In this document: piece by piece, positions 881-57,886 of the stretch
Position numbering within the stretch: the first letter of the stretch is position 1
How the letters are laid out: the number at the start of each line of letters is the position of its first letter
DNA from: Oxynema sp. CENA135
GTDB taxonomy: Bacteria; Cyanobacteriota; Cyanobacteriia; Cyanobacteriales; Laspinemataceae
Direction: 5' to 3'
Assembly (NCBI RefSeq): GCF_016632315.1
Contig: NZ_JAEOXH010000002.1
Coordinates: 32,160 to 96,159, forward strand
DNA: 64,000 bases
Notes under the pieces: generated by a model
What the model saw: the letters and a program-made list of their open reading frames with translations, nothing else
What the model was told of the DNA's origin: nothing
The model's database searches: none
Position numbers and translations under genes: made by a program

Positions 881-6874
<5,994 letters not shown>

Positions 6875-6965
6875 TTCCTACATTCGAGAGATTCTGCGCG
6901 ATCGCCCCGAGCGCTCTTATCCTTTACAATCGCGATCGATCTGTCTAAACCCAAGGAGTCAAACG

Positions 6966-7226
6966 ATGCCCGATTCGATTATGTATCAAGAAGAAGAGCA
7001 CTATGTCGTTCTCGAAGCCGATCGCCCGGAAGAATTTCTCAGCGCCCCGGAACTTTTAGCAAAATTGTCCGCGATTTTAACGCGCCGTCAAGATGATTTA
7101 CCCCGAGAACTTCAGAAGTTCTCAACCGTAGCAGAACAAGCTCGCTATTTACTCGAAAATCATTGCGAATTTGATGTCGCCCCCGGTCATTTTCTCCAGT
7201 GGTATGTGGTGCGTTTGGAAAAATAG
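6966..7226 (+). CDS. small conserved hypothetical protein (86 aa)
   Basis: ATG at 6966 preceded by AAGGAG 8 nt upstream. The upstream part of track ORF 6468..7226 is antisense to the kinase and is probably not translated. Product MPDSIMYQEEEHYVVLEADRPEEFL...HFLQWYVVRLEK. Confidence 0.5.
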   Translation: MPDSIMYQEEEHYVVLEADRPEEFLSAPELLAKLSAILTRRQDDLPRELQKFSTVAEQARYLLENHCEFDVAPGHFLQWYVVRLEK

Positions 7227-7374
7227 GCGGCAACAGGGACAGAGGCGATCGAGGCGACAACAAGGACAGGGGCGATCGCCCATTTTTGGGTTGATGGTTG
7301 CCCTCGCGATCTTCACCGGGAGCCAACCACCAACCCCTTAAATTCCTCCAGGAAAGCTAAAAATCACTCAACTT

Positions 7375-7932
7375 TTAAGCCGCGTCGTCGGCGATCGCAA
7401 TTAAAGCCACCTCAACCCGACCTTTGCGGACTTCACTGAGGCGCGATCGCACCCCCGGACCGAAAAATTTTTCGATTTTTTCCTGCTTTTCCTGCCACAT
7501 TTCTAAGGCCAAATTGGGCGAATTAAACTCTAAAATGAGTGCATAATTCCCCTCGATCGCCTCTTCCCGAATTCCCTCCAGAACCGGACAAACTTCATCG
7601 TTCGGACTCAACCCCAACCGTTCGAGCGCCTCTTCGAGATGAACCTTCTGACCGTACCGATAACGACTGACATCCTTGCGAATTTGATTTTGAATCGGCG
7701 TCGCCTGTCGTTCCCGTAAGGCGATCGTTTCCTCAGAACTCACTTGAGTCAACGGCGTCGGTTCCAATTCCGCCGCCTTCAGAGCTAACCCACCGAGTAA
7801 CACCGGAATTCCATAGAAAAACCCCGCTAAATTCAACGTGGCATTGTCATTGAAATACGCCACAAAACCGACGACGGTTAAAACCCCACCGACACCCAAC
7901 GCCAACAGCGCTAAAGAAAGATTGCGTAACAT
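7375..7932 (-). CDS. two-TM membrane protein, conserved cyanobacterial/plastid-type family (DUF2854-like)
   Basis: 185-aa ORF with two N-terminal hydrophobic helices (LALLALGVGGVLTVVGFVAYF; GFFYGIPVLLGGLALKAA) and a soluble C-domain; the family assignment is from memory. Confidence 0.55.
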   Translation of the reverse strand: MLRNLSLALLALGVGGVLTVVGFVAYFNDNATLNLAGFFYGIPVLLGGLALKAAELEPTPLTQVSSEETIALRERQATPIQNQIRKDVSRYRYGQKVHLEEALERLGLSPNDEVCPVLEGIREEAIEGNYALILEFNSPNLALEMWQEKQEKIEKFFGPGVRSRLSEVRKGRVEVALIAIADDAA

Positions 7933-8181
7933 GATCGCTTTGCTAGATGTTTTTTTTATTGTCCCTTGTCGCGAGCCGTTGGGGGGAGGGAGGCGAAGGC
8001 AAGAAGCAAGAATGCATCCCCATCGGTATCGTCAACTGTGGCGCGGGCATCTTGCCCGCCGCTTCCCCATTCCTTTAGAATGCAAGAGCTACAGACATAT
8101 TTCTAGATTAAAAACCGATTTTCTGACCAATTGCCCTAAATTTCAGCAAATAAATACTTTCAACCCCCATTTTTTCACTTC

Positions 8182-8214
8182 AAATCTAAAATCTAAACTC
8201 TAAACTCTAAACTC
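8182..8214. repeat. heptanucleotide tandem repeat array (ATCTAAA/CTCTAAA units)
   Basis: aaatctaaaatctaaactctaaactctaaactc read directly in the divergent intergenic region. Confidence 0.8.
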
Positions 8215-8302
8215 CCCACCCCCGCCAAGATCGCCTTGAGATAATGTAGAAATAGCTTAGTCGCCTTGCCTCCACTCGAAAATCTCAATACTGAACTGCT
8301 CC

Positions 8303-9901
8303 ATGTCCGGGTACAAAATCGGCCTCGATTTCGGGACGACGAACTCGATTATCTCTTACTTCACCCCCTCCGCCGAAGTAGAAGCCTTTCAATATGGCGG
8401 TCCCGACGGTCGCCGCTATATTCCCTCGTTTATCGGCTACGACGAGGAATTTGTCGAAATTGGCACCGCCGCGCGGACTCTCGCCGCCAATCACGGGGAT
8501 GTGGAAACTTACGGCAATTTTAAAATGCGCTTGCCCATTCCCGCCGACCAATTGCCGGAGTACATTCGCCACGATCGCACCCCCGCCAGCGTCACTACGG
8601 ATTACTTGCGCGAATTGCTCGTTTCTCCGGAAAATCCTTACAGTTTTTGCAAACAACAAGGGGAAATCTCCGGTTTGGTGGTCTCGGTTCCCGAAATTTG
8701 GCAGCGCGATATTTACAATCGCGGACGAGAATTGTTAAAACAGGCGATCGCCGCTCTCGATTTGCCCCTCATTCAATTGGTCAGCGAACCCGTCGCCGCC
8801 GCCGCTTACTATACTTGGGACATGCAACGACGGGCAAAACAGGCGGGTGATGAGAGTTTTTCCGGCAATCTCCTCGTGTGCGATATGGGTGGCGGTACCT
8901 TTGATGTGAGTTTATGCCGAATTTACGGGGAACAAAAAGTCGATGTCCTCTATTTTGACGGGCAGGGCGATCGCGGTCTCGAATCCGCCGGGGTAGCTTT
9001 CGATCGCCGTTGCGTGCAAGCAGCTTACAGGGCAAAACACGACTCGACTCTCGACGAAAACGACCCGGAATTCCTGCGCCTGTTACGCGAATTTGAAACG
9101 GTCAAAATTAGCTCTCACGCCCGCGTGACGCGATACCTCACAAATGCCGTGCACGAGCCGGAAATTTACGGCGATCGCCAGATTTACGTGTTTGCCGGGG
9201 GGTATTCCCTCAATTTCGCACAAGTTCGCGAGGCATTCGCACCGATCGCCGCCGGAATTACCGAAGTCATCGAAGGAGTCCGAACCTGGATCGCCGAACG
9301 ACAACAGACGATCGATCGCGTCTTCCTCGTCGGCGGTTTTTCTCAGTTTTTCCTCGTGCGACGGGCGATCGCCTCGGCTTTACAATTCGCTACAGACGAT
9401 CCCCGTCTCGACGAAACCTTTAACCTCACCCACAGCGCTTACGCGATCTCCTACGGCGCCTGTTTGATCGCCAACGATCGCGTCCAACCCAGCGAAAAAT
9501 ATCTGCACAATCTCGGGATCGTGGTCGATACCATCGACGCCAACGCCGAACGCCAACGCCGCGCGATCGAAATTATCAAAGGTGGCACCCGCTTGGAAGA
9601 GTTATCTCAACCGCAATTTGCCGATATTCCCCCTTTAGTGACCTTTCAACAAGATGCACCCTTGACCCTCACCCTCTGGGTAGACCCCCAAGGAAAAGGC
9701 GTCTTGGTCGAAGAATCCTTACCGGATATGGTGAAGTTACCGAGTTATTCTCCCGAGGATAAATGGCGGGTGGGAATGCGCGTCGATCGCTCTCAAATTG
9801 CTTATTTAACCATTGAAGAAGTTCGCGGGGAAAAACGAGTGGAATATGAGTTAGGCAATGTTTTAGCTAAAATGTTTCCCGGTTTCGTGTTAATTGAATA
9901 A
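8303..9901 (+). CDS. atypical Hsp70-family actin-fold ATPase (YegD-like, lacks a canonical substrate-binding domain)
   Basis: N-terminal phosphate-1 motif IGLDFGTTNS, phosphate-2/connect motif LVCDMGGGTFDVSL, adenosine motif FLVGGFSQFF. At 532 aa it is too short for DnaK; the architecture resembles E. coli YegD. Confidence 0.8.
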   Translation: MSGYKIGLDFGTTNSIISYFTPSAEVEAFQYGGPDGRRYIPSFIGYDEEFVEIGTAARTLAANHGDVETYGNFKMRLPIPADQLPEYIRHDRTPASVTTDYLRELLVSPENPYSFCKQQGEISGLVVSVPEIWQRDIYNRGRELLKQAIAALDLPLIQLVSEPVAAAAYYTWDMQRRAKQAGDESFSGNLLVCDMGGGTFDVSLCRIYGEQKVDVLYFDGQGDRGLESAGVAFDRRCVQAAYRAKHDSTLDENDPEFLRLLREFETVKISSHARVTRYLTNAVHEPEIYGDRQIYVFAGGYSLNFAQVREAFAPIAAGITEVIEGVRTWIAERQQTIDRVFLVGGFSQFFLVRRAIASALQFATDDPRLDETFNLTHSAYAISYGACLIANDRVQPSEKYLHNLGIVVDTIDANAERQRRAIEIIKGGTRLEELSQPQFADIPPLVTFQQDAPLTLTLWVDPQGKGVLVEESLPDMVKLPSYSPEDKWRVGMRVDRSQIAYLTIEEVRGEKRVEYELGNVLAKMFPGFVLIE

Positions 9902-9905
9902 TGGA

Positions 9906-9927
9906 AATTTTAGATTTTAGATTTTAG
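9906..9927. repeat. heptanucleotide tandem repeat array (TTTTAGA units), inverse orientation to the 8182 array
   Basis: attttagattttagattttag immediately after the stop codon at 9899-9901. Confidence 0.8.
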
Positions 9928-10106
9928 CTACTAGGCGGGAAGCCCCGCGCTCTCCCGAAGGGGAGCGTCGGGATGAGAGCCGCGCTTGCTGAGTGGGGTA
10001 CTCTCCGAGAAGCCGCTTCGCGTCTACGATGCCCCCGAAGCAAGCAATAGTCTACGCAACGCAACCAGTATTTATCAGATTACTGGGTTCATGCTAAAAT
10101 AGCGGT

Positions 10107-11312
10107 ATGTTGAAAGCAATCAAGGTCAGAATTTACCCTACCGACGAGCAGTCTGTCACACTAGCCAAGCATTTTGGCTGTACAAGATGGCTGTGGAATC
10201 ATTGCCTGTCTGTGATGACGGAAACGTACAAGACGACAGGCAAGGGAATTTCTGCCTTGACTATGAAGAAACAGATTCCTACGCTAAAAGCAGAGTATGA
10301 ATGGCTGAAAGAGTGCTATTCACAATGCTTACAACAGTCGGTACTTAATCTGTCTCAAGGGTTTCAGAACTTCTTTGAGGGTAGAGCAAAATATCCCAAT
10401 TTCAAATCAAAGCATCGTCGCCAGTCTGTTCAGTTTCCCCAAAACGTCAAAGTGATTTCTGAGTCGGCAATCAAGTTTCCTGGCTTGCTGGGAACGGTTG
10501 CAGCAAAGATTCACAGACCGATTGAAGGACAACTAAAAACAGTTACAGTGTCGAAGATGCCAGACGGAAAATACTTTGCATCGTTGTTGGTGGAAGATGG
10601 CACAGAAAAGCCCGATTCTTCCAGTGATGGTAAGGCGATTGGGATTGATTTGGGATTGACTGACTTTGCTATTACATCCGATGGTTCAAAGTTTGCCAAT
10701 CCTCGCCATCTCAAAAAGCATGAACGGAACCTGAAGCGTAAGCAGCGTAAGTTGTCTAGAAAAAAGAAAGGCAGTCAGAACCGAAACAAAGCACGAATCA
10801 AAGTTGCTAAAGTTCACGCCAAAATTGCCAACACGCGAGCGGATTTTCTCCACAAGCTATCCCGCAAGATAGTCAACGAAAACCAAGTGATTGTGGTGGA
10901 AGACCTAGCTGTTAAAAACATGGTCAAGAATCACAACCTAGCCAAAGCGATAAGCGATGTCGGCTGGGGGCAATTCTGTACCCTGCTCAAATACAAGGCA
11001 GAGTTTGAAGGGAAGGTATATCTGGAGGTTGGGCGATTCTTCCCAAGCTCACACCTTTGCTCAAACACCCTGTTGCCGCTAGAAAAGATGGATCTCTCGA
11101 TTCGCTCATTTGTGTGCCCTCATTGCTCAGAGAGGCACGACAGGGACATCAATGCAGCAATCAATATCAGAAATGAAGGCTTGCGGATATTGGACTCAGG
11201 AAGTGGGTCTACTGCTCTCGGAGGGAATGTAAGACCAAAGGGAGGCAGGCGAAAGTCTACCCTCCTAGAGGCGGTTCCCGGTGAAGAGAGAAGCCCGCGC
11301 TCTATTGCGTAG
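10107..11312 (+). CDS. tnpB: TnpB (IS605 OrfB-family RNA-guided endonuclease-like transposon protein)
   Basis: MLKAIKVRIYPTDEQ N-terminus, RuvC-like segments (IGIDLGLTDFAITSDG; VVVEDLAVKNM) and a C-terminal zinc finger CPHCSERHDRDINAAINI. Confidence 0.9.
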   Translation: MLKAIKVRIYPTDEQSVTLAKHFGCTRWLWNHCLSVMTETYKTTGKGISALTMKKQIPTLKAEYEWLKECYSQCLQQSVLNLSQGFQNFFEGRAKYPNFKSKHRRQSVQFPQNVKVISESAIKFPGLLGTVAAKIHRPIEGQLKTVTVSKMPDGKYFASLLVEDGTEKPDSSSDGKAIGIDLGLTDFAITSDGSKFANPRHLKKHERNLKRKQRKLSRKKKGSQNRNKARIKVAKVHAKIANTRADFLHKLSRKIVNENQVIVVEDLAVKNMVKNHNLAKAISDVGWGQFCTLLKYKAEFEGKVYLEVGRFFPSSHLCSNTLLPLEKMDLSIRSFVCPHCSERHDRDINAAINIRNEGLRILDSGSGSTALGGNVRPKGGRRKSTLLEAVPGEERSPRSIA

Positions 11313-11345
11313 CAATGAGCGTCGGGTACTTCACATTGGCTCTTT
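11180..11345 (+). ncRNA. candidate TnpB omega-RNA (reRNA) region overlapping the tnpB 3' end and RE
   Basis: By analogy with IS200/IS605 TnpB systems, the guide RNA derives from the tnpB 3' end plus RE. This region has hairpin potential (cgctctattgc-gta-gcaatgagcg). Inference only, with no covariance data. Confidence 0.3.
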
Positions 11346-11359
11346 ACTCCCCCTTACCC

Positions 11360-12400
11360 ATGTCCCTCGATCGCCTCGCCCAATCGATCGCCCGTCTCCA
11401 ACACCTCGCCTCTGAGGGCGAACGCCCCTCGTTGACCTTCGAGACGATCGCCCTCCCGTTGCAATGGCTCGAAATTCTGCTCGATGTTTGGGCACAACTC
11501 TATCCACCCGAGGTTTTGCAACAGTTGGACGCGACCGAACCGGAAACTTTGGAAGCGTGGGCGATCGCGCTCACTCGCGCCTTAGACGCCCAACTGCAAT
11601 GGCTCGATCGCACGGGCGCGACCCTCGATCGCCTCTCGTTGTTAGACGCCCTCAAAACCAAAATCGGCGATCGCGCCCGCCAATTACAACAGTTGCGCGG
11701 GCAAAACAATGAGTTGCTAGCTAAAACGGGCGAATTTTTGGCGATCGATGGCGAAATGCGCGATGCGATCGCCGAATTAGAGCAACTGCAACACGAAGCA
11801 GAGCAATTCGACCGACTGCGTGGGGAGTTGGAACGCACCGATCTCGATGGCTTGCGCGCGTCGATCGCCCGCGATCGTGCCGTCTTGGCACCGCAACAGG
11901 CGCAATTGAGCGAACTGGAGCGAGAAAAAGCCGATCTCGACGGTCAAATCGAGCAGTTACGGCGTCAGCAGTCCCAACTCGGCGAAGAAATCGAATTATT
12001 GCGCGGACGGCGCGATCGCCTGCAATTGCGAACTGAAGAAACAGCGAAAGCGGCGATCGCGGACTACGCCCGACAGCGCGATCGCCTCGGCGACAGCTTA
12101 CAACAGCTCTTAGACGAACTCGACTCCCAACGCCGGGAGTACGATCGCCTGCGCGGCGAGTTGGATCGGGCGATCGCCGAGTCGAACGAGTATCAAACGG
12201 CGATTCGACAGGGGCGCAACGCCCTCGAAACCCACTATCGCACCGATGTCGAACTCGGGCGCCGTCTGCCGACCAATGGGTCGGCGATCGCCCGTCTGGT
12301 CGGGGCGATCGAGGACAATTTAGCTGCCTTAGACCGGGAACTGGCCCGGGCGCAACAGGAGAATGAAGCGACCCGGGTCAAGCAAATTTTTACGTTTTAA
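11360..12400 (+). CDS. long coiled-coil protein (the track ORF begins at 11315 inside the IS right end; the Met at 11360 is the likelier start)
   Basis: 346-361 aa composed almost entirely of heptad-like E/R/Q/L-rich helices (ELEQLQHEAEQFDRLRGELERTDLDGL...) with no catalytic motif. Confidence 0.55.
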   Translation: MSLDRLAQSIARLQHLASEGERPSLTFETIALPLQWLEILLDVWAQLYPPEVLQQLDATEPETLEAWAIALTRALDAQLQWLDRTGATLDRLSLLDALKTKIGDRARQLQQLRGQNNELLAKTGEFLAIDGEMRDAIAELEQLQHEAEQFDRLRGELERTDLDGLRASIARDRAVLAPQQAQLSELEREKADLDGQIEQLRRQQSQLGEEIELLRGRRDRLQLRTEETAKAAIADYARQRDRLGDSLQQLLDELDSQRREYDRLRGELDRAIAESNEYQTAIRQGRNALETHYRTDVELGRRLPTNGSAIARLVGAIEDNLAALDRELARAQQENEATRVKQIFTF

Positions 12401-13034
12401 GGGTCAATCCCCGGCCTGTTTTGGCGAAGTCTTCGACGGTTTTATCGGAAAACTCGTGCTGGGCGATCGCCGCTAACATCGGCAACGGTAAGGTCAAGTG
12501 GTCGGCGCCTGCTTGTAAGGCGGCGGCAGCTTCTTCGGGAGACTTGATACTGGCGGCTAAGATTTCAACCCCACTGTCTTCGAGGATCGCGGCCATCTCG
12601 CGCACGAGGGCGATCCCGTCGCCCAAAAGCCTCGTGGCGCGGTTGACGTAGGCGATCGCGATTTTGGCTCCGGCTTCCCGGGCGATCGCCGCTTGAATCG
12701 GTCCGTAAATCCCGGTCACCGAACAGGTCATCTCTTTTGAAAGAATGGCGACGGCTTCAAATCCGGTCGGCGTGGCGGGAATTTTGAGGATGGTGCGATC
12801 GCCGATAATCTCGTAAGCTCGTCGTCCTTCGGCGACCATTCCGGAAACGTCGCCAGCTAGCAATTGATAGTAAAGCGGACCGTCGGCAAACGGGAGTAAG
12901 TTTTTTAGGGTCGTTTCCGGCGGATCGTCACTTTGCGCGAGTAAGGTCGGGTTGGTGGTGATGCCTTTGACCCAGCCGAGTTTTCGGGCAGCTTTGGCGT
13001 CGGCAACGATCGCCGAATCGAGATAAATGGCCAT
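12390..13034 (-). CDS. tal: transaldolase / fructose-6-phosphate aldolase family (short Tal type)
   Basis: MAIYLDSA...GITTNPTLL, then the catalytic Lys region ILIKIPAT-like (ILKIPATPTG); 214 aa is typical of the Fsa/TalC subfamily. Confidence 0.85.
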   Translation of the reverse strand: MAIYLDSAIVADAKAARKLGWVKGITTNPTLLAQSDDPPETTLKNLLPFADGPLYYQLLAGDVSGMVAEGRRAYEIIGDRTILKIPATPTGFEAVAILSKEMTCSVTGIYGPIQAAIAREAGAKIAIAYVNRATRLLGDGIALVREMAAILEDSGVEILAASIKSPEEAAAALQAGADHLTLPLPMLAAIAQHEFSDKTVEDFAKTGRGLTLKT

Positions 13035-13143
13035 AATTTACGGGAAAAATACAGGAAAAAAGATCCAAAAAGAACCAACGGCGGTTGAATTGCCGTTGCG
13101 CGATCGCGAAAACTTTGGTCTCTCAGTTGCTCGTTCCCCCGTT

Positions 13144-13722
13144 TTACTCGGGAAAAATTTTGGTTAAAGAGAGCAAAGAATCGGGAAATCCAGGGAGAGG
13201 AATGGCTTCGTTAATGAAGGGAATTCGTTTGGTTCGATAGCCGAATTTTCCGGGACTGAGTTCGTCGGGTTCGCTGTAAATTTCTAAATATTTATCGTTT
13301 AAATTGAAAATCCAATAATCTGAAATTCCCGCTCGGGCATAAAGGGGTTGTTTGATGGCGCGATCGTATTCGAGAGAGAGTTCGTCCGCAATTTCGATCG
13401 CCAGTAAAACTTCACTGGCTTGGGGTAACCGGGCGCGATAGTAATCGTCGGCATAGGCTAAAATCGCGAAGTCCGGCTGCACTTCCGTATTCTCGTTGAG
13501 AACGATCGCCCCTTGGGTTTGCACGAGGGCGCGTTGGGCCACAAACACGGGCAAGTCTTCTAATAAAGCACGCAAACAAGCAGCGTGGTCTTGACCGATC
13601 GGAGCCATCTGCACGAGGGTTCCTTCTACGAGTTCGACGGCTTCCTCTTCTTTGAAAAAGCCGCGATCGGCCAGTTTGTGATATTCGTCGATACTCAAGA
13701 TTTGGGGTTGAGAATTGGTCAT
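13144..13722 (-). CDS. Uma2-family (DUF820) putative restriction-endonuclease-like protein
   Basis: 192 aa with the characteristic EL..G..V.MAP and PD-(D/E)xK-like core (QPDFAIL...EIADE); the family is abundant in cyanobacteria. Confidence 0.75.
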   Translation of the reverse strand: MTNSQPQILSIDEYHKLADRGFFKEEEAVELVEGTLVQMAPIGQDHAACLRALLEDLPVFVAQRALVQTQGAIVLNENTEVQPDFAILAYADDYYRARLPQASEVLLAIEIADELSLEYDRAIKQPLYARAGISDYWIFNLNDKYLEIYSEPDELSPGKFGYRTKRIPFINEAIPLPGFPDSLLSLTKIFPE

Positions 13723-14768
13723 CGCTGCTGTGTGTTTTTTGCCTTTTAAATCAACAAAGGATTTGTCGATTATTTTAATACAAAAGCTTGAAAATTCCCG
13801 AAGCTTCAGTCTCTCTGGGAGCGTTGTGGACGTCTTTCAAGATCGCGTCCGGCGGCTTTGAACGACGGGCTAATTTGTCGAGGGTAGCGTTCGCGTCGCG
13901 TCTCCAAAACAGAATCGCTGACTCTCGACGAGCGGCTGCGCGGTTCCCCAGCCCGTAATCCCTCGCCGATCGTTGAAATTTCCTAGGGGAATCGGTGAAA
14001 TTTGGGGTCGTTTTCCGGGGCGATCTTCCCTTGTGAGAGCAAAGACAGCCCGGGCGCCCTTAAAGCCCTTGGCAGCCACCCCCAGTTCACCCGATCTCCC
14101 CGTCGATTCACGAAGAGTTTGCAGGGAATGTTGGGCGATCGCCCCCGATGGTTTGACCCCATTTTTACCCGGGCAGACGATCGATTCGTGACTTGTTAAA
14201 AAGGGAGATGACCCCCGTCACGGATCGAATCGCAAGTCAACTCATAGAACAGTTGTTGACGTTGGCTCGATGTTTTTGGCTGGGGCAATTTTGACAATGG
14301 AATCCAATAGAAACCCATCCCGATCCAAGCCACTCGATTGTTTGAGGAGGATGACATACAAATGACGAGTTCGCCGCACGATCGCAAGGCGATCGAACCC
14401 CTCTTAGCTGCCGAACTGGAACGGCCATCGAGCGCTTTAGCGTTGCAACTTGGCCTCGCCTAACCCCTCAACCCCTCGCCTCCCGTTGACGCCACCCGCA
14501 TCCGAGGCTGGAACTTACACCAGTAACAGGCCGTAAGCGAACGCGATTCCCCAGTCAAACAAGCCGTCCGAGGGGCGATCGCCGCCGTTTGTTCCGATCC
14601 GTTGCGAACGGCTAATGTTTGTCACCAATACGATTAAAATTAAGATGTCCTCCCCTGCCTGCCTTTCGAAGGGCAGGACACCCAGATCGTTTTTTGGGCT
14701 AACAAGGGTATGTTTAAATTAGCAATCGGCTAACCGACCGGAGGACTCTTTTCACCCCAGAACCAGGA

Positions 14769-15152
14769 ATGATGCAGATGAGTACCGTTCTGATTGTAGA
14801 CGACAGCGCAACCGCTAGAGAAATGGTTGCCGGACTTCTCAAAAAAATTGGCCTCGACGTGATCGAGGCCCGCGATGGTGTGGAAGCTCAAGAAAAATTG
14901 CAAGGGAAACTTCCCGATCTCGTTGTCATGGACATTATCATGCCTCGCATGAACGGCTACGACCTCTGCCGATGGCTCAGACGCCAGCCCCAAGGTCAAA
15001 ATATCCCGATTTTAATGTGTTCGAGTAAAAGTGAAGAATTCGATCGCTATTGGGGGATGAAACAAGGGGCTGATGCTTACATTACCAAGCCTTTTCATCC
15101 GTCCGATTTAGTGGGAACAGTCAAACAGTTACTCAATACCAACGCGGGTTAA
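14769..15152 (+). CDS. single-domain response regulator (CheY-like receiver)
   Basis: TVLIVDDSATAREM...DLVVMDIIMPRMNGYDL...CSSKSEE...AYITKPF: the Asp pocket, phospho-acceptor Asp and conserved Lys are all present. Confidence 0.85.
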   Translation: MMQMSTVLIVDDSATAREMVAGLLKKIGLDVIEARDGVEAQEKLQGKLPDLVVMDIIMPRMNGYDLCRWLRRQPQGQNIPILMCSSKSEEFDRYWGMKQGADAYITKPFHPSDLVGTVKQLLNTNAG

Positions 15153-15317
15153 TTGACCCCCTCGGATTGACATCATTTCTCAATCCTGATGCCCTCAAAT
15201 GCGATTGTTCGCGTTCCTCCACGTTTGAGGGCGACCCCAAGGGCGACTGGGGCTTTTAAAAGCGCTGCTTGGGGCATGAGGAGGCCGCACGGCCTCGCGA
15301 TCGCACCCTCGGGGAGT

Positions 15318-16208
15318 CTACAATCGAAAGTCACGCACGCTTTGCCAGTAGGAAAGAGGAACCCCCGTATCGAAACATTCTCCTTCCAAACAACAGCCAT
15401 ACATTCCTTCCAACTGACGCAACTGTTCTAAGGCTGTCGTGAGTTGGATTTCGCCGCGATCGCGCCGTCCGTCTCGGATGTTTTGTTCGAGAATCTCGAA
15501 GATTTTGGGCGTTAACAAATACAGCCCAAAAACGGTTAAAAAATCGTTCTCCGCCAATCCTTCGACCCGCAGATGCGATCGCGCGTAATTCAAATCCGGC
15601 TTTTCGGTTACTTCGCTTAAGTTTATCAGCCCTGTTTCCGGCTGCCAACTCCCCGCCACACAACCGCAATGATACAGCTCCTCGGCGGGAGTGACGGTCA
15701 CCCCGATCGCACTTTTTCCGACTCGTTCGTAGACTTCAACCAGTTGACGCGCGCAAGAGATTTCCCGCGTCGAACGATAAATATGGTCGCCTAACATTAA
15801 TAAAAAAGGTTCTGTGCCAACCCAATCTTTAGCGCAATAAACGGCGTGACCGAAGCCGTCTTGTACGGGTTGAGTCAATATATTAATCCGTTTGCCGACA
15901 GTTTCTAAATAACGGACGTATTCTTTTTGATGGGGTTTTATTTTATGGGCAAAGGCTTCGGAAAGGGGCGTTTTAAAAAAGTCTTCAAATTGGGCGCGAT
16001 CGCTCTCGCGGGTGACGATCGCAATTTGTTCGATTCCGGCACTGATGGCTTCTTCGGCGATCGCCAATATAATCGGTTTGGCGATCCCGTCGCGATCGAC
16101 GATCGGAAATAATTCTTTAGCGATCGCTTTGGTCGCCGGAAACAGTCGGGTTCCAAATCCACCCGCCGGAATGACAGCTTTACGAACCTGTGATTTGACT
16201 TCGGTCAT
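15318..16208 (-). CDS. galU: UTP--glucose-1-phosphate uridylyltransferase
   Basis: N-terminal KAVIPAGGFGTRLFPATKAIAKELFPIV is the GalU nucleotidyltransferase signature. Confidence 0.8.
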   Translation of the reverse strand: MTEVKSQVRKAVIPAGGFGTRLFPATKAIAKELFPIVDRDGIAKPIILAIAEEAISAGIEQIAIVTRESDRAQFEDFFKTPLSEAFAHKIKPHQKEYVRYLETVGKRINILTQPVQDGFGHAVYCAKDWVGTEPFLLMLGDHIYRSTREISCARQLVEVYERVGKSAIGVTVTPAEELYHCGCVAGSWQPETGLINLSEVTEKPDLNYARSHLRVEGLAENDFLTVFGLYLLTPKIFEILEQNIRDGRRDRGEIQLTTALEQLRQLEGMYGCCLEGECFDTGVPLSYWQSVRDFRL

Positions 16209-16326
16209 TTCGATCGAATTACGATTAGCAAAAGGGGGCAGTTTTTGCCGTTCTCGGCGATCGCCTTCACTCGGTCAATTTTGATTGATTTTAAGGGTGG
16301 CGGCGATCGGCGAGGGCCTTAACCCT

Positions 16327-21392: not shown

Positions 21393-21650
21393 AACGACTG
21401 TTGCTCCTTGTTATGCAATTACGGTACTGATTCCAGGATAGGGTGCAAACCTGCCGAGTGACCAGAAGTTGAAATCCAGTCCTAAAAAGTGACCCGGAGT
21501 CCACGCCTACCGCAAGCATCCCGTGTTGCTGCTCCCTTCCGGGTCTGACAAGGTTTAGGCGTTGCGATCGCATGGGTCCGGATCGCTTACTAGCATATCA
21601 TTATTAAAGGAGAAAACAAGGGTTCGGGCTGAAAAATCCCCAAAAATCCC

Positions 21651-56598: not shown

Positions 56599-57500
56599 GT
56601 CATCAATTATGTAGGTTGACAAAAGTGACCAAATGTGGAGGAAAGCGCCTGCGGACATTTAAGCCAGCCAAATCACGGATGCAGCCAGGTAAATGCCACC
56701 CAGGAAGTTCACCGAGCGCTTGTCATAACGAGTGGCAATCCCTCGATACTGTTTGAGCTTGGCAAAGAAGTTTTCCACCAGATGTCGGGTTTGATACAAG
56801 AATCGATCGTAATCGTGGGCTTGTTTTCGATTCTTTTTCGAGGGAATGACGACTTCAATCCCTCGCTCGTGCAACGGTTGTCTGACTCGTTCGTCGGCAT
56901 CGTAAGCTTTATCCGCTAGCAGTGCCTGGACTTCCACTGATGGTAGCAACCGCTCGGCACCGACTAGATCGCTGGCCTGACCGGGAGTTAAAAAAAAGAT
57001 ATGGGATTCCCCAAAGCATCCACCACCGCATGAATTTTCGTACTCAACCCGCCTCGGCTACGACCGATATTTTCCTCTTCGGCTGAACTCCCTGATGCTC
57101 CAGCACTGTGCTGATGCGCTCGCACAATGGTGGAATCGATGGCAGCATATTCGTTATCGGCTTCCTCGCAGAGGACTTGGAAAACGCGCTCCCACACCCC
57201 AGTTTTTGACCAGCGAGTGAAGCGTGTGTGGACGACTCGAAAATCCCCAAAGCGTTCGGGAAGATCTCGCCAAGGAATCCCTGCTCGAAAGCGATACAAC
57301 ACGGCTTCGACGAATAAACGGTTATCTTTAGCTGTGACCCCAACTGTACCCGGACGACCCGGAAGCAGGTGTTCAATGCGTTGCCATTGGTCGTCTCGTA
57401 AAGCGTAACGCCGTTTCATCCCGGTTTTGAGCTATCTTGAGTGAACGGGTAGCAGGCTACACACATTTCACTATTTTTGTCAATTTTCTTAATTGATGAC
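56599..57500 (-). mobile_element. IS5-family insertion sequence (IS427/ISL2-like) with about 35-bp imperfect terminal inverted repeats
   Basis: IRL gtcatcaattatgtaggttgacaaaagtgaccaaatgtg (56599-56637). IRR reverse complement gtcatcaattaagaaaattgacaaaaatagtgaaatgtg (57462-57500). The element encloses a two-ORF frameshifted DDE transposase. Confidence 0.75.
56659..57419 (-). CDS. IS5-family DDE transposase produced by programmed frameshifting (orfA 56988-57419, orfB 56659-56949)
   Basis: orfA MKRRYALRDDQWQRIEHLLPG (HTH); orfB ...ADKAYDADE...VIPSKKNRK...YRGIATRYDK (DDE/K motifs); a slippery A7/T7 run at the junction (56991-57000). Confidence 0.75.
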
Positions 57501-57505
57501 AGACC

Positions 57506-57886
57506 CTAGGAAGCTCTCATAGGAACCGCGTGACATCCTCCCGACATTGTGGTCTGCAACACCTGAGAATGCACCTGACCCAGATGTGGGAATTGCTTCT
57601 TCGCTTTGGGCAGGTTGTTCTGCTGACGATGGTAAGACGGGAATGGTTCATCGGCAGGAATGGTGTATTCCTTTTCCAACGAGCATCGGTCTACCTGACA
57701 CTTACGCGAAGCAATCCAGTCTTTGAGTTCGCGCAAAGCGTAGTTATATACGCCTGGGCACGTCTCAAGCCACGACCGCAGTTCAGTCTGCCCGGTGGCG
57801 TCTGGATAGATTCGGTAGGTGTAGTTCATGGTCAGCATGACCGGAGTTGACCACAGGCTATAGCTGCTGATAAATGCTGGTCTCAT
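57506..57886 (-). pseudogene. truncated TnpB (IS605 OrfB-family) N-terminal fragment, abutting the IS5-family element
   Basis: MLTMNYTYRIYPDATGQTELRSWLETCPGVYNYALRELKDW matches the TnpB N-terminal HTH/WED region (compare tnpB at 10107, MLKAIKVRIYPTDEQ...). Only about 126 aa are retained and the RuvC and Zn-finger regions are absent. Confidence 0.6.

Follow-up and report, generated by a model that had tools for sequence, protein, structure and literature searches.

The window analysed here is a 64-kb stretch (64 000 nucleotides) of DNA from an Oxynema-like cyanobacterium. All features described below lie on the + strand unless noted otherwise. The tnpB gene (10107–11312, 401 aa), which was assigned by Pfam and NCBIfam matches and by homology to ISDra2 TnpB, lies between an Hsp70-family gene upstream (8303–9901, 532 aa) and the gene of its coiled-coil partner downstream (11360–12400, 346 aa, start ATG at 11360). 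The stop codon of the Hsp70-family gene comes 26 nt before the left border of the element that carries tnpB. A promoter-like sequence, TTATCA-N17-TAAAAT, is found at 10072–10100, with its 3′ end 6 nt from the tnpB ATG.

The TnpB protein is full-length and matches the Pfam families OrfB_IS605 (PF01385, 2e-32), HTH_OrfB_IS605 (PF12323, 3e-18), and Cas12f1-like_TNB (PF07282, 1e-17), and it scores 426 bits against NCBIfam NF038281 (IS200_TnpB), for which the cut-off is 425. Residues 3–379 align with the structures of ISDra2 TnpB (8BF8, 8EXA, and 8H1J) with E = 8e-75. A RuvC domain with a CPHC zinc finger had been proposed for this protein in the initial annotation. The RuvC part stands, as the triad D181/E265/D347 aligns with D191/E278/D361 of ISDra2, and 77 of the 80 relatives have it. 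The zinc finger, with residues H316/C318…C337/C340, is not the classical one: position 321 is Thr, so the CxxC…CxxC pattern is without one Cys, for which the covarying His-316 probably substitutes. The dN/dS of 0.07–0.13 against the closest relatives indicates that tnpB is under purifying selection. A plasmid search returned distant TnpB genes only.

There is no room for a tnpA gene in the element, since the stretch from the left border to the tnpB ATG is only 178 nt long and contains no ORF. Furthermore, a Y1-transposase probe of the 64-kb window gave no match, so the element is without tnpA, as first described. The second, truncated TnpB that had been noted at 57506–57886 (− strand) is also real, with a match to HTH_OrfB_IS605. 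It retains only this N-terminal domain, is unrelated to the main element, and adjoins IS5-family transposase ORFs at 56659–57419 (− strand); no further TnpB-like sequence was found to the left of it.

Ends and borders of the element

The left border was set at TTAG|C and the right border at TTCAC| by alignment with 80 related loci, all cyanobacterial, in which the flanks outside TTAG…TTCAC are unrelated. The last shared sequence in 77 of the 80 is GGTA(C/G)TTCAC, with unrelated DNA downstream. By this alignment the element ends at 11334 and is 1407 bp long, rather than about 1415 bp and reaching 11345 as was initially supposed; its exact borders are now fixed, which is a gain for annotation. 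The left end (LE, 9928–10106) contains the guide tetranucleotide G_L, the imperfect palindrome IP_L, and the promoter-like motif. The right-end (RE) core (11290–11334) contains G_R, IP_R, and the right cleavage site C_R, which is TCAC at 11331–11334, inside the element, with the cut after 11334. The termini, CTACTAGG… and …GTACTTCAC, have no inverted terminal repeats. The window shows no target-site duplication, and the flanks of the relatives are likewise not duplicated.

On the left, TTAG at 9924–9927 is flanking DNA outside the element and serves as the target and left cleavage site (C_L). It is also the predicted TAM, by analogy. Among the 47 relatives in which the LE could be located, to which this count is restricted, 43 have TTAG in front of the LE, as the window does, and the remaining 4 have TTAA. 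The TTAG of the window is the final unit of an (ATTTTAG)3 array. Our first guess, a 5-nt target and TAM of TTAGC, was dropped for TTAG on three grounds, namely the guide-pairing rule and its covariation, described below, the deletion border at TTAG| in Oxynema aestuarii, and the heptamer periodicity that is regained when the flanks are joined at TTAG|ATT.

The end motif CCCGCGCTCT..GAGCGTCGGG occurs in exactly two copies in the 64-kb window, at 9944–9972 and 11294–11326, where none is expected from 100 shuffles. Both copies are on the + strand, and both form imperfect hairpins in which a T is bulged, so that the description of a related, directly oriented motif with hairpin potential at each end was correct. 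IP_L (9944–9972, T9968 bulged) is preceded by the 4 nt of G_L, AAGC (9940–9943), and IP_R (11294–11326, T11322 bulged) by the 4 nt of G_R, GAAG (11290–11293). The tnpB stop codon falls in the loop of the right hairpin. The hairpin sequence of this element is CCCGCGCTC/GAGCGTCGGG. Compared with shuffled sequences, the fold has z = −4.2 on the right and z = −1.4 on the left, and the subterminal hairpins are retained among the relatives with compensatory changes in the stems.

In IS608, the cleavage tetranucleotides are read by the 4 nt on the 5′ side of the hairpin foot (PMC3201880), and TTAG/AAGC fits this pairing pattern. Position 4 of the target and position 4 of the guide are always paired in 32 left ends (30 G-C and 2 A-T), although this covariation is thin, with just two A-T cases. 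In 28 of these 32 ends, the distance between the left cut and the hairpin foot is 16–17 nt, within a family range of 14–19 nt.

The omega-RNA scaffold and the predicted guide

The initial annotation expected an omega-RNA from the 3′ end of tnpB and the RE, and a scaffold was found there by covariation and by an independent covariance model. The omega-RNA (reRNA) scaffold covers 150 nt (11185–11334) and shares sequence with both the 3′ end of tnpB and the RE. Its helices, defined by covariation, are 11192–11198/11204–11210, 11215–11217/11288–11290, 11223–11228/11274–11279, 11235–11236/11270–11271, 11240–11245/11261–11266, and 11247–11250/11255–11258, followed by the RE hairpin. RNAalifold gives 33 pairs, of which 24 have compensatory changes. 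The alignment cells are paired in 94.8% of cases, vs 79.5% when shuffled, and the covariation score is 0.469, vs 0.19 for shuffled alignments and 0.06–0.10 for slid registers. The minimum-free-energy fold of the window's own sequence agrees with the consensus structure. We had considered a pseudoknot for AGAC..GGGAGG..GTCT.CCCTCC, and this was rejected, as the covariation gives a nested hairpin in which GGGAGG/CCCTCC encloses AGGC-GAAA-GTCT. On this comparative evidence, the tnpB 3′ end and the RE together encode an omega-RNA scaffold that is conserved and covaries.

The covariance-model search that had been proposed as a check gave a divided result. Our own model (R1), built from 53 relatives with the window left out, has a single match in the window, at the scaffold, with 153 bits and E = 2e-40. 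However, no Rfam model detects the omega-RNA: a search of the whole window at the gathering thresholds found no omega-RNA family, and a search at E ≤ 10 over 9800–11500 found nothing relevant, the matches to IS009 and to snoRNAs being noise. The Rfam null reflects the coverage of the library, not a missing structure.

In ISDra2, the reRNA is about 150 nt, with which the present scaffold agrees in size and position, and the guide consists of the roughly 16 nt of flank that follow the RE (PMC8612924). The guide here is predicted, from its position and by analogy with ISDra2, to be ATTGGCTCTTTACTCC (11335–11350), which is flanking DNA and occurs once in the window. The 16–20 nt past the RE would then direct TnpB to TTAG|ATTGGCTC…, the donor joint that precise excision would leave; the earlier placement of the guide just beyond the RE is upheld as a prediction of this kind. 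A literature search turned up nothing relevant on a TTAG TAM.

The insertion locus, mobility, and the allele in Oxynema aestuarii

Where does the downstream gene begin? A longer ORF of 361 aa starts at ATG 11315, inside the RE hairpin, and the distance of 2 bp between the element and the downstream ORF in the initial annotation depends on this ATG, which is supplied by the element. The 346-aa form is the one annotated by JGI in L081, and the alignment of this form with the Sodalinema and GCA_011390955 orthologues, which lie behind the Hsp70-like gene, starts at residue 2. The conserved start, judged from these sequences, is ATG 11360, and the annotation of the coiled-coil gene moves accordingly. 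The NCBI model of 361 aa in O. aestuarii begins inside a leftover right end. The Hsp70-like and coiled-coil genes are adjacent in O. aestuarii, in Sodalinema, and in one further cyanobacterium, and the insertion splits this conserved gene pair, much as had been suggested for a former two-gene unit. PADLOC gave only coiled-coil noise on the flanking genes and no defence-system match.

The O. aestuarii locus is collinear with that of the window, with 95–96% identity on both sides of the element, and has the same sequence minus exactly 9928–11279 (1352 bp). The deletion opens exactly at the left cleavage site, 9927|9928, and the surviving piece of RE (11280–11334) is identical in 55 of 55 nt. The empty-site allele that was anticipated in related strains was not found; this sister species has a deletion derivative with 55 nt of RE rather than a precise empty site. 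Because a remnant of the RE stands at the same locus there, the insertion is old and predates the split from O. aestuarii. The comparison indicates that the O. aestuarii lineage later lost 9928–11279.

We consider it very likely that positions 9928–11334 are an intact, non-autonomous, tnpB-only IS200/IS605 element of the IS1341 type. This degree of confidence is meant for the whole explanation, comprising the element, its ends, the omega-RNA scaffold, the inferred cycle of excision and cleavage, the split gene pair, and the age of the insertion. The original assignment to the tnpB-only IS200/IS605 type is supported by the Pfam and NCBIfam matches, the ends, and the lack of tnpA in the window. 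Cyanobacteria carry many elements of the TnpB kind, and this one is an ordinary but complete further example. By analogy with ISDra2 and IS608, the top strand would be cut out as a circle by a Y1 TnpA acting in trans, which would then insert it again 3′ of TTAG. tnpB would be transcribed, probably from the promoter abutting its ATG, and the 3′ part of the transcript with about 16 nt of flank would become the omega-RNA. TnpB with this omega-RNA would then cut the vacated site, TTAG-ATTGGCTC…, and recombination with a sister copy would restore the element.

Does this cycle still run? Any current mobility of the element is putative, since neither a tnpA nor a second copy was found within the 64-kb window. 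One relative, L045, is the only one to retain a truncated Y1_Tnp fragment upstream of tnpB, which points to descent from tnpA-bearing elements. The element may be a relic that was once mobile but, lacking a transposase, has been stranded at this locus from a time before the Oxynema species diverged, with TnpB and its omega-RNA either idle or kept for a host or selfish purpose other than transposition. That O. aestuarii, whose genome is about 5% divergent, has the insertion at the same site would agree with this, as would the lack of a tnpA and of a sister copy in the window, and the closest relatives are in other genera, with 84–93% amino-acid identity. We think it rather unlikely, however, because both ends, the cleavage sites, the guide tetranucleotides, the omega-RNA helices, and the DED triad are all intact, and a long period of neutral decay would not be expected to leave them so well preserved. 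Furthermore, copies of the family are found at unrelated sites in many genomes, and near-identical members at different sites in related Microcoleus genomes show that the family is active. The 64-kb window also leaves room for a tnpA elsewhere in the genome.

Apart from its bearing on the age of the insertion, the O. aestuarii allele raises the question of how the 55-nt scar arose. Recombination between the two hairpins was rejected, since the 5′ part of the scar is right-end sequence (GGTGAAGAGA), not left-end. TnpB cuts 15–21 nt inside the flank, so a border exactly at TTAG| would not result from interrupted repair after such a cut, which is an unlikely origin. We suggest, tentatively and as a possibility rather than as the expected answer, that the allele is the product of an aberrant TnpA reaction and not of a random deletion. 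The sequence TCCC (11276–11279) directly precedes the right border of the deletion. It sits 14 nt 5′ of the right hairpin, within the range of left sites in the family (14–19 nt), and at positions 1, 2, and 4 the contacts open to it with the right guide GAAG are those of the true site TCAC. On this view, the right hairpin with its bound transposase would have served in the geometry of a left end, and the 55-nt scar would be what remained after excision of tnpB together with the left end and the greater part of the omega-RNA. In such a scar the TAM would be separated from the target of the guide, and so the scar could not be cut by the TnpB homing nuclease. If this is true, it would be a route for the permanent loss of a TnpB element despite its self-restoring mechanism. 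The comparison in any case provides a dated pair of orthologous alleles, a full element and a 55-nt scar, and if the borders of the scar reflect transposase chemistry, the pair would show how TnpB-guarded elements can still be lost.

The scar could conversely be the ancestral state, a REP-like or miniature element to which the tnpB segment was added later. With TTAG at its left edge and TCAC at its right, it does look like a very small element, but in 77 relatives the same sequence is the continuous 3′ end of a conserved scaffold of 150–200 nt. The helices H3 and H4 pair across 11279|11280, so the 55-nt unit is a fragment of the whole, and neither the rest of the window nor the O. aestuarii loci contain a further copy of the motif; this origin is very improbable. 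A metagenome scan with the pattern TTAG-N6-16-GAAGCCCGC…GTCGGGTASTTCAC showed no recurrence of the O. aestuarii type of scar, its one match being a unit of a different kind, a single hairpin that is an LE/RE hybrid (L089). No solo right ends were found in the compared loci apart from Oxynema. Finally, the reading as a decayed pseudogene or as an arrangement due to chance, without the structure of an element, has nothing in its favour beyond the z of just −1.4 for the left hairpin, and we regard it as refuted by the Pfam, NCBIfam, and ISDra2 homology, the repeated end motif, the conserved borders, the covariation, and the covariance model.

Relation to known elements

Like members of the IS1341 group, the element has tnpB alone between ends of the IS200/IS605 type, and gene content is what defines membership in that group. 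The autonomous elements of the IS605 group have both tnpA and tnpB; here, no Y1 HUH TnpA of its own is present. The O. aestuarii allele (TTAG plus 55 nt of RE) and the L089 unit resemble PATE- and MITE-like derivatives in being gene-less and in keeping a hairpin and cleavage sites, but they are single-locus scars with one hairpin each, whereas PATEs are repeated and have retained both ends.

The ends share with IS608 of Helicobacter pylori, the reference for the ends of the IS200/IS605 family, the subterminal imperfect palindromes with an extrahelical T. The left cleavage tetranucleotide is outside the element in both, 16 nt 5′ of the hairpin foot here and 19 in IS608. The right one is inside the element in both and 3′ of the foot, with the cut at 8 nt here and the site at 10 nt in IS608. 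The left cleavage and guide sequences are TTAC/AAAG in IS608 and TTAG/AAGC here, with the same position-by-position pattern, and on the right TCAA/GAAT in IS608 is paralleled by TCAC/GAAG. The first two bases of the IS608 right guide, G and A, are confirmed (PMC3201880). The present element differs from IS608 in its sequences and distances and in the missing tnpA.

The closest parallel to the coding and RNA parts is ISDra2 of Deinococcus radiodurans. The TnpB proteins are homologous with a common D-E-D triad, although the zinc finger is Cys4 in ISDra2 and His/Cys3 here. The target is TTGAT in ISDra2 and the 4-nt TTAG here, and the element described here is without tnpA. The layout is the same, with a scaffold of about 150 nt over the tnpB 3′ end and the RE and a guide derived from the flank, and for both elements the TAM should be identical to the target of the transposase. 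The structure has been solved for ISDra2, whereas the helices here are defined by covariation. The predicted TAM (TTAG), the predicted guide, and the 150-nt scaffold are thus put forward for a compact TnpB that is near the genome-editing enzyme ISDra2 TnpB.

TnpB and the borders of the element

The tnpB ORF (10107-11312, + strand) is uninterrupted and encodes 401 aa, with the three Pfam domains of TnpB, HTH_OrfB_IS605, OrfB_IS605 and the Cas12f1-like TNB zinc finger. With the NCBI model 'IS200/IS605 family element RNA-guided endonuclease TnpB' the protein scores 426 bits (cut-off 425), and the ISDra2 TnpB structures (8BF8, 8EX9, 8EXA and 8H1J) align to residues 3-379 with E 8e-75. These matches confirm the initial annotation of a 401-aa TnpB. 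By alignment, the RuvC triad is D181/E265/D347, equivalent to D191/E278/D361 of ISDra2.

Relatives came from a search of the prokaryotes in which each species was represented by a single genome; the best 80 of 499 confirmed loci were taken (L001-L080). These 80 are all cyanobacterial, with 62-90% protein identity, the nearest being in Thermostichus, Allocoleopsis and Leptolyngbya JSC-1. The DED triad is kept in 77 of the 80, and dN/dS of tnpB against the closest among them is 0.07-0.13. The zinc finger departs from the classical CxxC...CxxC, with His at 316 and Thr at 321. Residues 316/318/321/337/340 are H-C-T-C-C in 68 relatives and K-C-C-C-C in the other 12, so His-316 and the loss of the second Cys covary, suggesting a ligand swap in which His replaces Cys.

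In the alignment around tnpB, similarity among the relatives begins directly after TTAG (9924-9927) and ends at ...GGTA(C/G)TTCAC (11334), and beyond these points the flanks of different loci are unrelated. This sets the element at 9928-11334 (1407 bp); the start proposed earlier was exact, but the end had been placed 11 nt too far. Neither terminal inverted repeats nor a target duplication was found at these borders. The 64 kb contain the end motif CCCGCGCTCT...GAGCGTCGGG exactly twice (9944-9972 and 11294-11326, + strand in both cases), where none is expected by chance. Each copy folds into an imperfect hairpin whose 3' arm has a single bulged T, as had been anticipated for directly oriented motifs at the two ends.

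Recognition of the cleavage tetranucleotides in IS608 works by base pairing with the four nucleotides immediately 5' of the foot of each hairpin. TTAC is the left site, 19 nt 5' of its hairpin, and TCAA the right site, 10 nt 3' of its own; AAAG serves as the left guide, and the hairpins have an extrahelical T (PMC3201880). The left end of our element matches this layout, with TTAG, 16 nt, the left guide AAGC (9940-9943) and the hairpin. Read base by base, TTAG/AAGC has pairs at positions 1, 2 and 4 and a purine-purine contact at position 3, as does TTAC/AAAG. The right end is similarly arranged, with the guide GAAG (11290-11293), the hairpin and 8 nt more ending in TCAC (11331-11334). A clear hairpin was present in 32 left ends of the family. 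Of these, 30 combine a TTAG target with C at guide position 4, the other two (relatives L072 and L076) combine TTAA with T, and in 28 the cut lies 16-17 nt from the hairpin foot. This covariation comes from two variant cases only, and still puts the predicted left cut directly 3' of the G in TTAG, making TTAG the target and the expected TAM.

An (ATTTTAG)3 heptamer array (9906-9927) ends where the element begins, and comparable ATTTTAG/AAAATCT arrays are found next to family members of other genomes (L006, L009 and L041). Such arrays may be a source of repeated TTAG targets and act as insertion hot spots.

Transposase, transcription and neighbouring genes

With an IS608 TnpA sequence as probe, no tnpA was found inside the element, in agreement with the initial annotation, or elsewhere in the 64-kb window. 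The same probe found a truncated Y1 (IS200-like) transposase fragment, confirmed by Pfam as Y1_Tnp, in Desmonostoc, where it lies divergently 5' of a tnpB of the family (L045, 2207-2389, - strand). This fragment, the only tnpA trace among the best 80 of 499 relatives, argues that the family descends from tnpA-bearing elements. The window copy would depend on a transposase acting in trans.

A sigma-70-like promoter at 10072-10100 (TTATCA-N17-TAAAAT, its -10 preceded by TG) stops 6 nt short of the tnpB ATG, and no Shine-Dalgarno sequence is present. Since it abuts the ATG and close relatives share the TTATC...TGnTAAnAT-6/7 nt-ATG layout, the tnpB mRNA may be leaderless. No intrinsic terminator was found after the element, so transcription could possibly read through into the coiled-coil gene.

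What did the element interrupt? Upstream lies an atypical Hsp70-family protein of 532 aa (8303-9901, + strand) with a weak, partial HSP70 match; downstream is a coiled-coil protein of about 350 aa (11360-12400) without a Pfam family. PADLOC gave no defence match for either gene. The Hsp70-like gene is directly followed by a full-length coiled-coil orthologue in Sodalinema gerasimenkoae (35% identity, spacer 51 nt) and GCA_011390955 (36% identity); the pairing is not present in Planktothricoides. The pair is thus conserved in several cyanobacterial genera, which supports the proposal that the element separates a former two-gene unit. Removing the element leaves a spacer of 26 + 25 = 51 nt, equal to that of Sodalinema. 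Orthologue alignments begin at residue 2 of the form from ATG 11360; ATG 11315 sits in the right-end hairpin. GCA_011390955 also has a different TnpB gene, split in two, immediately upstream of its Hsp70-like orthologue (L086, 856-2132).

The second, truncated TnpB noted earlier is indeed present at 57506-57886 (- strand), with the N-terminal HTH_OrfB_IS605 domain only. It gave no tblastn match with TnpB of the element and so belongs to a different TnpB lineage. It adjoins IS5-family ORFs with DUF4096 and DDE domains (56659-57419, - strand), whose division into two suggests a frameshift, and beyond which there is no more TnpB sequence. The only gathering-threshold Rfam match in the window is a bacterial small SRP RNA (RF00169, 59 bits; 21488-21584, - strand).

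The right-end scar in Oxynema aestuarii

The Hsp70-like neighbour is 98% identical to the O. aestuarii protein, and the locus is found without tnpB in the O. aestuarii chromosome (CP051167.1), one JGI genome and one Logan contig. It reads ...GATTTTAGATTTTAG|GGTGAAGAGAGAAGCCCGCGCTCTATTGCGTAGCAATGAGCGTCGGGTACTTCAC|ATTGGCTC..., so this is not the empty-site allele sought in related strains, but a locus keeping 55 nt of the right end (6626-6680 in L081/L082, the O. aestuarii loci). By blastn there are two collinear blocks, window 3291-9927 at 95.8% and 11280-16232 at 94.8% identity; the sole structural difference is therefore the missing 9928-11279 (1352 bp). The 55 nt are identical to the window, form the uninterrupted 3' end of the omega-RNA scaffold in all relatives, and contribute to helices that pair across the breakpoint. 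Thus the full element is the ancestral form, from which the O. aestuarii allele arose by deletion, and the insertion is older than about 5% genomic divergence. The NCBI 361-aa model of the downstream O. aestuarii gene starts at an ATG inside the scar, whereas the JGI 346-aa model does not.

Recombination between the two hairpins is ruled out as the origin of this scar, the 5' part of which is right-end sequence, and there is no microhomology at the deletion borders. The left border is exactly the left cleavage site. On the right, the deletion stops just after TCCC (11276-11279), a tetranucleotide 14 nt 5' of the right hairpin that is like the genuine right site, TCAC, where it matters for pairing with GAAG. 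These borders hint at an aberrant transposase reaction, a tentative and on balance rather doubtful reading of a single example. A metagenome scan for further such scars gave one match of a different type, a single-hairpin unit of ~54 nt (L089, contig JAAUYH010150387.1, 9089-9146), TTAG|CTAACCTCGCGGGAAGCC-hairpin-GGGTAGTTCAC|, with left-end sequence in its 5' part and right-end sequence in its 3' part. This unit looks like a scar or mini-element from recombination between a family member's two hairpins.

Omega-RNA scaffold and predicted guide

Rfam has no match for an omega-RNA over this region, so we built an alignment of the window with the final 200 nt of 77 relatives. RNAalifold gives 33 pairs in 7 helices, with compensatory changes in 24 of the pairs. 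Standard pairs fill 94.8% of cells (79.5% when shuffled), and the covariation score is 0.469, compared with 0.19 for shuffled alignments (0 of 500 reach it) and 0.06-0.10 at registers slid by 1-3 columns; taking structure and test from one alignment favours the structure somewhat, but the independent pair types are many. As an independent test, a covariance model built from 53 relatives, leaving the window out, gave a single match in the window, end to end at 11185-11334 (153 bits, E 2e-40). The consensus helices also recur in the window's own minimum-free-energy fold. We consider the predicted omega-RNA scaffold, from the tnpB 3' end and right end as first proposed, well supported by covariation and this model. 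By position, the predicted guide is ATTGGCTCTTTACTCC (11335-11350), unique in the window.

Both hairpins, the cleavage sites, the guide tetranucleotides and every RNA helix are intact. The element is a complete, ordinary tnpB-only IS200/IS605 member with predicted TAM and guide. Only the orthologous 55-nt scar of the sister species is mildly out of the ordinary, and its borders may inform on how such elements are lost. The scaffold at 11185-11334 is like the ISDra2 reRNA in size and position, the latter being ~150 nt with the last ~16 nt derived from the flank (PMC8612924).
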